A stretch of 64,000 nucleotides of DNA from Planctomycetota bacterium (lineage in GTDB: Bacteria; Planctomycetota; GCA-002687715; DRQF01), in assembly GCA_047639315.1 (NCBI GenBank), contig JBLINQ010000008.1, positions 810 to 64,809 of the forward strand, written 5' to 3'. The notes beneath the pieces were generated by a model. That model did no database searches. It was not told the DNA's origin and saw only the letters and a program-made list of their open reading frames with translations. Made by a program: the position numbers and the translations under genes. This document shows positions 1,848-52,511 of this stretch, one piece after another (the stretch's first letter is position 1; each line of letters begins with the position of its first letter).

Positions 1848-2861
1848 TTACTTCATCCGGCTCCAGACGTTGGCATACCACATGGCACGTTTAGAAACCT
1901 TGAGCCCTGTCATCTTGCCCACGACTTTCCTCATCTTCAGGTCCATGCCATCTTTCACGCCTTTTTGTGAAGCAATGATGAGCTTGGTGACGGCCTTGTC
2001 GAGCTTGAGTTCGTTCTTACCAACGTAGTCGTCGAACTTGGCTTTGAATGCAGCGCAAGTCGCTTCCCAAGTTGGTTCCCCTTTGCAGCCCTTGGTGAGG
2101 GCTTCGAGGTTCTTTTTAGCTTCGATCCAGCTGCCAGTCGCCATCATATATTTGATCGAAGCGACGTCAGCTTTAAAGCGAAGCTTCAGTTCTTTCTTGG
2201 CCAACTCTAGGTCGGCTTTGACTTCCTCGGTACTTGGCTGGTAAGTCTCGAGAATCTTCTTGGCGTCAAAGAGTAAACCCTTGCCATGCATGAGTGCTCG
2301 TGCCGATGCGATCTCGGGAGCGGCTCCCCATCCGGTCTGCAGTTTCTTGAGTTCGATAGGAATGCGCTTATCGATGAGCTTGCCGACTTCGTTGCGATGA
2401 CCGACGGCGATGATCTTGCCGTCGACTCCAACGAGGGCTGCCATCGGCAACTTCAATGCGTCAGACTTGCCAATCACGAGAGGATTGTCGGCCGTGACCA
2501 TGGCTGTATTCGTTGGAAAGCGCTTCATCATGAAGGCGGCCAAGTCGACGGTCTCTTCTTGCACGTGAGTCAGGACAACAGTGAGTCCTTTCTTACGATA
2601 CTTCTTGTCGATCTTAATGGCATGCGGCACCGCATGCCCGAGGCAAGGCCCTCAGCGGTAGCCCCACATCTCGATAAGAACGGGTCGTCCAACGAAGTGG
2701 TTACGTGATACGTGACCATCTCCATTCATCACGACTTTGCGAAACCGAAACTCTGGCATGCGCTCTCCGGCAACGGCCAAAGTTTGAGCATGGCTCATCG
2801 TTGGCAGCAGGACGAGGAGGGCGATGGCCAATGACAGTCGATTGATACTCATGAATCTCAT
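1848..2861 (-). CDS. Exported TlpA/redoxin-like protein with U-x-x-C motif (predicted selenoprotein, UGA read-through at 2654-2652)
   Basis: Track ORFs 2652..2861 and 1848..2630 are in the same frame. Reading through TGA gives signal peptide...GRPVLIEMWGYR-U-GPCLGHAVPHAIKIDKKYRKKGLTVVLTHVQ, the redoxin beta1-CxxC-helix-beta pattern. A SECIS-like hairpin follows. Start is 2861 or 2852. Confidence 0.85.
2619..2638 (-). promoter_or_regulatory. Candidate bacterial SECIS element
   Basis: Minus strand GGCATGCG-GTGC-CGCATGCC: perfect 8-bp stem, loop starts with GU, stem starts 13 nt and loop 21 nt after the UGA. Confidence 0.7.
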
Positions 2862-25458: not shown

Positions 25459-26298
25459 ATGAAGAATTTGGCATTGATTGTCTGCCTCGTTGCCCTTGGC
25501 AGCATGGCAGTCCCAACGACATTATTCAGCCAATGCTGAGGTGCTGGGGGTAAAGCAAAAACCCCTAGCGGCGCTGGACGCGTCGAAACTCCCATTGCAA
25601 AAGAAATGCGTAGCCCTGCTGTGGCAACCGAGCTTGAGATCAATTGGATCGAAGCTCAGTGGCCAACTTCCTGGGATGAGAAGTATGGCGATCAAGCCCT
25701 TCCTCTCAGCGCACTTTCGAAGTTGTCAGACGACAAGAACAAACCTTCTCTCGTCTATGTTGTCCGTGGCAACGAAGAAGAGAAGCAGCTCATCAACGAA
25801 GACAAGATGTTTGGCTCCATTGATGTTGTTCTCGCCAGTCGTTTCTTCCGTTGCTATCGCATTGTTGACAGCGATATCACAGACGAGAAGATTCGCGCGA
25901 AGTATCTGTTGAAGAAGGGCCCCACGGTCATTCTTCTCGATGCCAAGGGCAACGAAATGTTGAAGAACAAGAAGAGCGTTTCGAAGACTTGGGTCTACAG
26001 CAAGCTGAAAAAGCAGTTCTCATATGACTTCGACGGCAAGATGTCGACTCACGTGAAGAAACTCTCCGCTTGGCTCGACGAGCTCGAAAAAGCTGACGAC
26101 AAGAAGGCTGACGCAGAACGTCTTTATCGTACTGCTGCAGACCGTTTCGAAAAACGCGAGACACCTGCTTCGACTCGTTCATTGGCAAAGGCTGAGAAAG
26201 CTTATGCTGACTCGGAAACCACATTTGACAAGATCAAAGAGCGCGGCCCAAAGTTGAGTAGCCCTCAATTGAAGACTCAGAATACTGCAAAGAAGTAG
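25459..26298 (+). CDS. Exported thioredoxin-fold-like protein with N-terminal Cys-Sec (CU) motif (predicted selenoprotein, UGA at 25537-25539)
   Basis: GGAGGA RBS and ATG 25459 give MKNLALIVCLVALGSMAVPTTLFSQC-TGA-GAGGKAKTPSGAGRVETPIAKE, exactly in frame (49 codons) with track ORF 25606..26298, whose own ATG has no RBS or signal peptide. Confidence 0.75.
25543..25577 (+). promoter_or_regulatory. Hairpin(s) immediately 3' of the in-frame UGA (candidate SECIS)
   Basis: GCTGGGGGT-AAAGCAAAA-ACCCCTAGC (9 bp, one G-U) starts 3 nt after the UGA. An alternative CTAGC-GGC-GCTGG hairpin puts a G-led loop 30 nt after the UGA. Confidence 0.45.
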
Positions 26299-50511: not shown

Positions 50512-50536
50512 GAACGGACGGTTCTCGTAGACAAAA

Positions 50537-50572
50537 AAACTGCCTGGACAACGATGGTTGTCCAGGCAGTTT
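50537..50572. terminator. Bidirectional intrinsic terminator
   Basis: AAACTGCCTGGACAAC-GATG-GTTGTCCAGGCAGTTT perfect 16-bp stem between convergent genes. Confidence 0.88.
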
Positions 50573-50597: not shown

Positions 50598-51500
50598 TTA
50601 AGCGTCTTTCAAACCGATGAGGGTTTCGCGTGCTTCTTCAACAAGGCCAGTTTTCTTGGCTTTGCCCATGAAACGTCCAAGAGCCTTCTTGGCGTCCTTT
50701 GGTTCCATGTTCTTAATTTCATCCAACCGTGTGCGAGCCGAAGCCGTGATGGCGTCTTTCGCTGCGGTGATCTTTGCCTGAAGTGCTTCAGGCAAGTTCT
50801 GGGGCTTAGCAGCAACCTTGTCGATTAACTTGTAGCCTGAGTCCCAATCACCTTTGCTGGCAGAAGCGACGCTGGCGTCGATCGCGCTATTGATCTTGTT
50901 GATCGTCTTGCGCTTGATGCCCTTGCCATGCTCGTCTTTGAGGAGCTTGGTTGCATTCTTGACTTCTTCCATGATGCCCTTGGCATTCACACCTTTGAAG
51001 ATGTGCATACGTTCGAGGTTGTGTGGATTGACCAAGCAAGTGTAAGGGATCTTGCCGGTGTCGTTGTATGTCCCAGCCTTGCTTGAACGCAATTTAGAGA
51101 TCATGTCAAAAGTGAGGTTTGGCCACTTAGCCATGAACTTGACTTTTTCACCGTTAGCATTCTTCTTGGTGTACATGGCTGCTTTAGGATCTTCTTTCTT
51201 GATCCCTTCATCCAGACGACCCAAGGACAGAACCTCAACGGTATTGTCGTTCGCAAACTTGATATATTTCTTATTCTGCAACACGGCAGAATGTGCACCC
51301 CAGCACGGGCCTCAGTAGAAGCCATGGCTGTGCAAAACCATAGGGACGTTCAGTAGCTTGGCTTCTTCGACTGCCGCATCCCAAGTCTGAGCGAACGTCA
51401 CTGTTTCCTTCAACTTTGGCTTTTTCTGAGCCCAAGCATCATCGGAAATGGCAACGAATGTCAGGCTGAGAAGGAGTGCAATTAAGAGACTCCGTTTCAT
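50598..51500 (-). CDS. Exported thioredoxin-fold protein with U-x-x-C motif (predicted selenoprotein, UGA read-through at 51314-51312)
   Basis: Track ORFs 51312..51590 and 50598..51284 are in frame. From ATG 51500: signal peptide...TWDAAVEEAKLLNVPMVLHSHGFY-U-GPCWGAHSAVLQNKKYIKFA (thioredoxin-like 'A..EAK...P......W-CxxC' pattern). A SECIS-like hairpin follows. Confidence 0.85.
51273..51292 (-). promoter_or_regulatory. Candidate bacterial SECIS element
   Basis: Minus strand ATTCTGC-CGTGTT-GCAGAAT: perfect 7-bp stem, GU at loop positions 2-3, loop 26 nt after the UGA. Confidence 0.7.
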
Positions 51501-51788
51501 GCTTCTATTCTCCGTATTCGCGATAATCGCGATCCTAAAACATAGCGCCCTGGGAAACGGTAATTCACGTCTCTGCTCAGGCACCGTCATGGTGTTTTGG
51601 GTGATCTAAATCGATTTCAGAGAAATCCGCAAGATACAGCCCGCTCCCGCCTTACAAACAAATAGGATCAGGCGAACGATTCGATGAATCTGAGAAAACC
51701 TCAGATTTGTTTCGGCTGCGGTGCAAGATGGGGCGGACAAGAGGTTACCATCTGGCCACATCAATTCGGTTTTGGGAGTGTCTTCCGG

Positions 51789-52511
51789 ATGATTCGAGTC
51801 CATCAAAGACCGGCATTAATGGTCTTAACTCTATTGCTATTAATGTGTTGCGCCTCATGTCGTGACTCATTGGATTTGCATTCGGATCAGGCTGTTCTCA
51901 TTGTCGAACGAGCCCGGGAGCACCCTGTTCTCTTTAAGACCGAGCGAGATTTGGAGCGGGCACCGGATGTCTTTCAGGTAAAATTCCGTATCGAGACCGG
52001 CGGAAACTTCATAATTGAGGCCCATCGGGAGTGGGCTCCGAACTCCGTTGATCGATTCTATAACCTCTCAAAAGCCGATTTTTGGAAACGGGCCCCGATC
52101 ATTCGTGTCGTCCCAGGGCATGTGATCCAGTGGGGCATTCATCCGAGCCCCGGCGTGACGAAGTCATGGCGTGAACATTCGTTTGACCCAGATCGAATCC
52201 TGAAGAGTAACCGACGTGGATACGTGGTTTTCGCTCCAGATCTGGATTCTCGTCGGCCAAGCACGCAGATCATGGTCAACCTCTCGGATCACCTGACGTA
52301 CGACAAGTTCTACGCTCCGTTCGGACGAGTCATCAAAGGCCTCGATGCTCTCGAGCGCGTCTATGGCGACTACGGTGATCTTGTTGAATATGGCAACAAG
52401 ATAGGGCCGGATGCCAAGCTCGCCGTGAAACGCGGCCAAGCCTATATTGAACACAGGTTTCCGCTGATGAATGTGTTCCGCTCAACAACTCTCAGCGAAA
52501 AGACGCCTTAG
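51789..52511 (+). CDS. Cyclophilin-type peptidyl-prolyl isomerase (probable lipoprotein)
   Basis: IEAHREWAP..VDRFYNL, IIRVVPG.VIQWG, STQIMVNL, PFGRVIKG; hydrophobic leader with Cys. Confidence 0.8.
   Translation: MIRVHQRPALMVLTLLLLMCCASCRDSLDLHSDQAVLIVERAREHPVLFKTERDLERAPDVFQVKFRIETGGNFIIEAHREWAPNSVDRFYNLSKADFWKRAPIIRVVPGHVIQWGIHPSPGVTKSWREHSFDPDRILKSNRRGYVVFAPDLDSRRPSTQIMVNLSDHLTYDKFYAPFGRVIKGLDALERVYGDYGDLVEYGNKIGPDAKLAVKRGQAYIEHRFPLMNVFRSTTLSEKTP

Follow-up and report, generated by a model that had tools for sequence, protein, structure and literature searches.

The minus strand of the 64,000-nt stretch of DNA analyzed here (the window) almost certainly carries a real, unannotated gene (50598..51500) for a thioredoxin-like selenoprotein with predicted export, as judged from sequence comparisons. 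Taken as a whole, the locus very probably encodes an exported thioredoxin-fold oxidoreductase whose attacking residue would be selenocysteine (Sec), with the UGA codon decoded via a hairpin. The coding sequence is complete (300 codons and a TAA stop at 50600..50598) and is interrupted by a single in-frame TGA at codon 63 (51314..51312, minus strand), on either side of which homologues align over their full length. Reading this TGA as Sec (U) from 51500 to 50598 yields a 300-residue product with the context HSHGFY-U-GPC-WGAH around codon 63, a Sec codon assigned from the sequence and from comparison with homologues. Translation table 11 resolves the same region into a 92-aa and a 228-aa open reading frame. 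The predicted redox motif, U63-G-P-C66 (51303..51314, minus strand), has invariant columns for C63, P65 and C66 in an alignment of 41 sequences.

Expression and export signals flank or begin the reading frame. A Shine-Dalgarno-like GGAG (51510..51513, minus strand), read by eye from the sequence, precedes the start codon at 51500 by 9 nt. The first 24 residues (MKRSLLIALLLSLTFVAISDDAWA, followed by QKK; 51429..51500, minus strand) resemble, by eye, a signal peptide of the Sec (secretion) type, and a basic-hydrophobic-AxA N-terminus is present in all of the full-length homologues in the alignment. An intrinsic terminator with a perfect, GC-rich 13-bp core stem and a U7 tail (50533..50569, minus strand) is located 28 nt past the stop codon. 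It folds at -33 kcal/mol (z = -7.3; none of 200 shuffles folds as well), and the stem reaches 18 bp in the fold, where an AAA pairs with part of the U run. A scan for consensus promoters and terminators found no promoter and missed this terminator, which was seen by folding instead. The strong hairpin after the stop codon suggests that the gene is monocistronic. The initial annotation, which was made from the letters of the window, had already described a 300-residue read-through product with a signal peptide, a thioredoxin-like N-terminus and a helical C-terminal domain. The translation reproduces this product with its TGA, the N-terminus fits an exported protein, and the two-domain architecture agrees with the structural model and structure searches described below.

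The identity of codon 63 is best seen in the relatives of the protein. When 5.8 billion proteins were searched with a word index, 224 relatives that fall in two length classes were retrieved. In every relative of approximately 300 residues, C-[G/P/S]-P-C occupies the corresponding position, and the shorter ones (approximately 228-240 residues) begin with 'MHSAVLQNKKY...' directly after the motif. Proteins that start just past the motif are the signature of gene calls cut by a stop. A set of 1.84 billion cluster representatives, searched exhaustively with a profile, contained only 297 matches. Of the 150 best, 73 are C-terminal fragments that begin just past the motif, 14 are N-terminal fragments whose last residues are H-x-H-G-x-x, directly before it, and only 12 have an intact CxxC. 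Thus, gene callers split the family at the UGA and the databases mostly contain its two broken fragments, making it invisible as a selenoprotein.

A six-frame search of a 401-genome sample of Planctomycetota identified the family in 51 of them, and most of the matches had exactly one TGA. Among the 53 copies in these genomes, which represent many families of the phylum, the codon for the first cysteine is TGA in 40 and TGC or TGT in the remaining 13. The protein is conserved on both sides of this codon (VVHSHGFY before, GPCWGMH..QNKKY after). Such conservation of the TGA across metagenome-assembled genomes (MAGs) was one of the checks proposed in the initial annotation, which also held that homologues consistently without C or U at the site would count against its reading; C or U was always present. 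The annotation further named TGC or TGT at 51312-51314 in sequencing reads as a refuting finding, and a second assembly record, described below, has TGA there as well.

These comparative data already contradict the notion that translation genuinely ends at the TGA, whether the locus is a pseudogene, has suffered a nonsense mutation or was misassembled; it would then leave a 62-aa peptide and, possibly, a 228-aa protein with its own start. Callers using table 11 do annotate the region in this way, and most database entries are fragments of 228-240 residues. However, the same TGA codon in 40 copies from many families, with protein conservation on both sides, is not what a true stop predicts, and the downstream fragment would be left without a signal peptide and an active site. 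Furthermore, the TGA is followed by hairpins that are particular to the Sec forms, Cys forms align at the site, and the TGA and hairpin recur identically in another assembly record, the JGI metagenome contig Ga0535667_0311506. We therefore regard a true stop as having a negligible chance of being correct. At the same time, many members of the family end at an ordinary TGA stop, indicating that TGA is not reassigned genome-wide.

The UGA is followed by a candidate Sec insertion (SECIS) hairpin (51273..51292, minus strand), assigned by comparison and by bacterial SECIS (bSECIS) criteria to what we designate class A. The hairpin has a 7-bp stem formed by a 5' arm AUUCUGC (51292..51286) and a 3' arm GCAGAAU (51279..51273) that enclose the loop CGUGUU (51285..51280), and the loop begins 26 nt past the UGA, exactly where the initial annotation had placed it. 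The published bSECIS model calls for a loop of 3-9 nt, a stem of 4-16 bp, a UGA-to-loop spacing of 16-37 nt, a G within the first two nucleotides of the loop and a minimum free energy of -7.5 kcal/mol or lower (PMC13188914). The window hairpin falls within these bounds (6-nt loop, 7 bp, spacing of 26 nt, -7.7 kcal/mol) and has a G at loop position 2, followed by a U. The hairpin is marginal when considered alone, with the 71-nt region around it folding no better than shuffled sequences, and the case for it is therefore argued from homologue comparison only.

That comparison separates the 40 Sec-form loci into two classes of hairpin. In class A (21 Sec-form loci, including the one in the window), the seven codons that follow C-W-G-M read CAU UCU GCC GUG NUG CAG AAY with zero synonymous variation and form a UUCUGC/GCAGAA stem with a CGUGNU loop. 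None of the 13 Cys forms has the class A hairpin; in these, the histidine codon is CAC and both codons and residues vary at the next two positions. The invariance of the class A stem shows conservation, not covariation. The other 19 Sec-form loci write a different hairpin into the same seven codons, GCAC-N-(GGUC/GUGC/GUUC...)-N'-GUGC (class B), with a spacing of 22 nt. The four outer pairs of class B are uninformative because they are fixed by the His-CAC and Val-Leu GUG-CUG codons. The loop-closing pair is C-G in eight loci, G-C in five, A-U in four and unpaired in two, a degree of covariation that was reached in none of 500 shuffles. Class B cells are paired in 97.9% of cases vs 16-60% in slid controls, and only 3 of the 13 Cys forms retain the five-pair stem. 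Thus, two interchangeable SECIS solutions occupy the same seven codons of the family.

These elements resemble the fdhF-type SECIS of E. coli and the bSECIS consensus in that the hairpin is inside the open reading frame and has a small apical loop with a G followed by U/G; the class B loops that read GGUC are a further point of likeness. Unlike the fdhF-type SECIS, the stems of this family are short (5-8 bp) and have no evident bulged U or lower stem, and their recognition by SelB is a prediction. An Rfam search around the UGA returned no matching model.

The source genome, a 5.2-Mb MAG in 280 contigs, encodes a complete set of Sec genes, all of them scoring above the curated cut-offs: tRNA-Sec (C111:6305-6398, 65.5 bits), selD (C111:6588-7514, 355 bits), selA (C111:7558-8928, 507 bits) and selB (C175, 354 bits). 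Three of these, selA, selD and tRNA-Sec, form a cluster with a common strand (G000:C111:6305-8928). The selD gene has itself an in-frame TGA (SSGG-U-AAK, GGU-AAK) and therefore codes for a selenoprotein form of SelD. All of the other 50 genomes carrying the family also have selA (51 of 51 carriers, counting the source genome). Across the sampled Planctomycetota, 290 of 401 genomes (72%) have selA, so the Sec trait looks unusually widespread in the phylum.

The presence of this machinery bears on whether the UGA could be read through by other means, such as near-cognate insertion of Trp or Cys or a suppressor tRNA. Sequence data cannot identify the inserted residue, which leaves room for this reading, yet we consider it very improbable. 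The Sec machinery is complete and accompanied by selA in every carrier genome, the hairpin fits the SelB-type SECIS model, and the site is that of a redox cysteine, the classic position of Sec/Cys exchange. TGA also serves as the stop codon of many members of the family. Decoding of UGA-63 as Sec is the reading that we carry forward.

The family appears to be confined to one phylum. In a survey of representatives of 185,579 species, all of the convincing loci were in Planctomycetota MAGs, including Phycisphaeraceae, Planctomycetia, Planctomycetaceae and others, recovered from wastewater and from marine, lake and groundwater settings. A maximum-likelihood tree of the 53 copies has Sec forms on every deep branch, those at the base carrying class B SECIS. 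Class A is limited to one clade with 100/100 support, which contains the window gene, and Cys forms are embedded in the tree at no fewer than four separate, well-supported positions. The simplest reading of this topology is that Sec is ancestral and was replaced repeatedly by Cys (at least four events), with a single switch in SECIS class; as the tree was rooted at the midpoint only, the Sec-to-Cys direction is an interpretation of the branching order.

Several Cys forms reside beside a Sec paralogue in the same genome. The two are in tandem in G199 (G199:C4:214249-216203) and G262 (G262:C117:10140-12091; loci L036 and L037), where the Cys copy is without the class A hairpin, and such coexistence is also seen in G018, G297 and G182. 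One Cys form (L034, G018:C18:14813-15652) has kept the five-pair class B stem GCACC-GCUC-GGUGC and shares its contig with a Sec-form copy approximately 6.5 kb away. The retention of the stem and the proximity of the Sec copy suggest a recent Sec-to-Cys conversion. The tandem paralogues are a natural pair for comparison, and the family as a whole offers a clean natural experiment in Sec-to-Cys replacement, with some of its events in tandem duplicates.

An AlphaFold2 model built from 41 sequences (pLDDT 92.9, pTM 0.85) resolves the product into two domains. The first (residues ~35-170; 50991..51398, minus strand) is a thioredoxin-fold domain similar to Thioredoxin_7 and DsbD-gamma proteins in the model and in Foldseek searches. 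Its elements follow the order alpha-0 (40-50), beta-1 (54-60), the U-G-P-C motif at the start of alpha-1 (64-74), beta-2 (88-94), an inserted beta-hairpin (109-123), beta-3 (153-157) and beta-4 (164-168). Pro152, which is invariant, is just before beta-3 (E153). Hence, the model has the features that define the thioredoxin fold superfamily: the beta-alpha-beta-alpha-beta-beta-alpha fold, a CxxC placed where alpha-1 starts, and a conserved proline preceding beta-3. The second domain (residues 173-300; 50601..50984, minus strand) is all-helical in the predicted secondary structure, with a long alpha-3 (173-191) and five further helices (197-299) for a total of six.

Sequence searches with the 300-aa protein were largely silent on this fold. 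No Pfam family reaches its gathering score; Thioredoxin_7 (PF13899) scores 12.6 bits against a gathering threshold of 27 (E = 0.16), and models of the Redoxin/TlpA-ResA-like group (PF08534, NF002854) do not match. NCBIfam release 20.0 has no family at E<=1, selenoprotein models included, and a PDB sequence search gave no significant match. The helical C-terminal domain, likewise, has no Pfam or PDB sequence match. With respect to the Thioredoxin_7 comparison raised as a check in the initial annotation, the profile falls below its threshold, and the closest Foldseek neighbors of the predicted structure are of the Thioredoxin_7 type.

The best Foldseek matches in the PDB were 3f9u (E = 2.6e-5), an exported cytochrome-c-biogenesis-related domain of B. 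fragilis, the Chlamydia DsbH (2ju5) and DsbD-gamma (1uc7), with E values of 2.6e-5 to 1e-3 and TM scores of ~0.6 normalised to the target. AGR2/ERp19 and then classical thioredoxins follow these Thioredoxin_7-type matches, and all of the matches have the thioredoxin fold. DsbD-gamma, DsbH and 3f9u are all exported and share with the modeled protein the alpha-0 that precedes beta-1 and the CxxC. However, they are Cys proteins of ~120-150 residues without a helical C-terminal domain and have only 11-17% identity. The chaperedoxin CnoX/YbbN (Salmonella 3qdn) similarly couples a thioredoxin fold to an all-helical (TPR) domain. It appears at rank 45 of the Foldseek list, aligned over ~300 columns with a weak TM score of 0.27, and Pfam and PDB sequence searches found no sequence similarity in the helical domain. 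CnoX is cytoplasmic and, in E. coli, is without a functional CxxC. The likeness is, as far as these models go, an architectural analogy only.

The genomic context provides few functional clues. A neighborhood comparison of 30 loci identified no phylum-wide operon partner. The only conserved neighbors, a cyclophilin-type peptidyl-prolyl isomerase (PPIase) and a Ser/Thr kinase, recur in 8 loci of the taxonomic family to which the window belongs, and elsewhere the flanking genes differ. In the window, the cyclophilin-type PPIase (51684-52511, plus strand) is divergently transcribed and has a hydrophobic, Cys-containing N-terminus, possibly of a lipoprotein. With no conserved operon, the context gives no substrate. 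The mechanism that we propose therefore rests on the signal peptide, the fold, the C-G-P-C-type motif and a DsbD_TM protein encoded elsewhere in the source genome (G000:C120).

According to this mechanism, SelB loaded with Sec-tRNA(Sec) would recognize the hairpin at 51292..51273, so that UGA-63 is decoded as Sec without termination, and the signal peptide would direct export of the product through the cytoplasmic membrane. Sec63, positioned where helix alpha-1 starts, could then attack a substrate disulfide (or sulfenate), and Cys66 would resolve the resulting selenenyl-sulfide. A DsbD-type electron shuttle in the membrane may return the oxidised U-G-P-C to its reduced form, and the six-helix C-terminal domain probably binds a partner or substrate. 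The strongly reducing C-G-P-C-type motif and the placement of Sec in the attacking position are the features behind the reductase proposal. On balance, we lean toward a role as a periplasmic selenol/thiol-disulfide reductase, a functional assignment that we consider somewhat probable.

The conserved histidines of the family could also be accommodated by a selenoprotein that is not a disulfide reductase. In the 41-sequence alignment, which has U63 and C66 in the same motif region, three histidines (His57, His59 and His191) never vary and a fourth, His70, is conserved to 90% or more, and the arrangement H-x-H...U-x-x-C...H could form a selenolate/thiolate/imidazole metal site (e.g., Cu/Hg, Sco-type). 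Sco proteins, which have a thioredoxin fold, bind copper via CxxxC and a histidine. The motif of the window protein is instead the canonical reducing C-G-P-C with two-residue spacing, and the structures it resembles most are those of redox carriers (DsbD-gamma, DsbH), not Sco. Moreover, by sequence comparison, His57 corresponds to the buried Asp26 of E. coli thioredoxin, a catalytic acid/base position, which we take to count against metal binding. No metal-related genes neighbor the locus. We consequently view a metal site as unlikely and retain the reductase as the favored function.

A second gene in the window (2861..1848, minus strand) places the protein in a broader lineage. It has one TGA in the context GYR-U-GPC-L and codes for an exported selenoprotein candidate with a Redoxin/ResA-like domain and a helical domain, although both HMM scores (Redoxin, 4e-5; ResA, 8e-11) are below the cut-offs. 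It also has a SECIS candidate of its own, with an 8-bp stem (GGCAUGCG/CGCAUGCC) and a GUGC loop starting 21 nt past the UGA. BLASTP aligns only 43 residues around the motif of the two window proteins. By contrast, hhalign matched the two family profiles, that of the 1848..2861 gene comprising 14 read-through members, with a probability of 98.4% (E = 9.3e-15) over 227 columns (query 33-304) that include both domains. This profile homology over the thioredoxin and helical domains identifies the two genes as distant paralogues with the whole architecture in common.

The comparison upholds what the initial annotation had inferred about the pair, that the two genes share the U-G-P-C tetrad and architecture, are otherwise divergent, and belong to an old paralogous family. 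Its broader view of an old selenoprotein family, as opposed to an accidental nonsense mutation, is supported by the Sec/Cys correspondence, the conservation of the TGA, the SECIS elements, the Sec machinery and the two-domain homology. The family of the 1848..2861 gene is present in 120 of the 401 genomes of the phylum (30%), with exactly one TGA in most of the matches and multiple paralogues in several genomes.

The family of the 50598..51500 gene has precedents in kind. A 2026 catalogue of bacterial selenoproteins lists, among many others, thioredoxin, thiol:disulfide interchange, thiol-disulfide isomerase-like/TlpA (cd02966) and Redoxin (PF08534) forms (PMC13188914), and TlpA-like selenoprotein candidates have been reported in planctomycete isolates (PMC4807772, S9 table). 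Like the catalogued thioredoxin-fold UxxC selenoproteins, the family has Sec in place of the N-terminal Cys of the CxxC, a bSECIS inside the open reading frame and Cys homologues; the 1848..2861 gene belongs to the Redoxin/ResA-like group of these proteins. Unlike the catalogued UxxC families, it has the signature H-S-H-G-F-Y-U-G-P-C-W-G-M-H, a ~35-residue beta-hairpin insertion and a family-specific helical domain, no Pfam gathering score or NCBIfam match, and a distribution found only in Planctomycetota. Its motif strings were not found in the searchable literature. Having neither an HMM match nor a motif in the literature, it is most aptly regarded as a new family within a familiar kind, the thioredoxin-fold UxxC selenoproteins, set apart in a comparison that covered Pfam and NCBIfam HMMs, including those that define the catalogued families, and the searchable literature.

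Recognition of the family adds a lineage-specific member to the thioredoxin-fold selenoproteins. We propose, tentatively and as something short of probable, that this is a Planctomycetota-specific family absent from catalogues and HMM libraries, with Sec ancestral and Cys secondary, and that together with the much larger TlpA-like family it may be part of a large, mostly unannotated exported selenoproteome for envelope redox. The presence of selA in 72% of the genomes and of the TlpA-like family, mostly with TGA, in 30% suggests that selenium-dependent envelope redox could be a general and overlooked trait of the phylum.

Other loci with in-frame TGA codons were observed alongside these two families. 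A third paralogue in the source genome (G000:C33:19676-20662) has a signal peptide, the motif FFRWN-U-GPC-VGG and a Lys-rich helical C-terminal domain, and shares 26% identity with the product of the 1848..2861 gene. A distant subfamily (L069, L070 and L074, in G184, G339 and G365) has ~27% identity, the same architecture, one TGA and the motif FHKDK-U-GGC or RHKDF-U-GRC. In the window, a further candidate (25459-26298, plus strand) would code for a signal peptide, the sequence Q-C-U-G-A-G-G and then an in-frame, Lys-rich body of 250 residues, a product with no Pfam match at E<=0.001.
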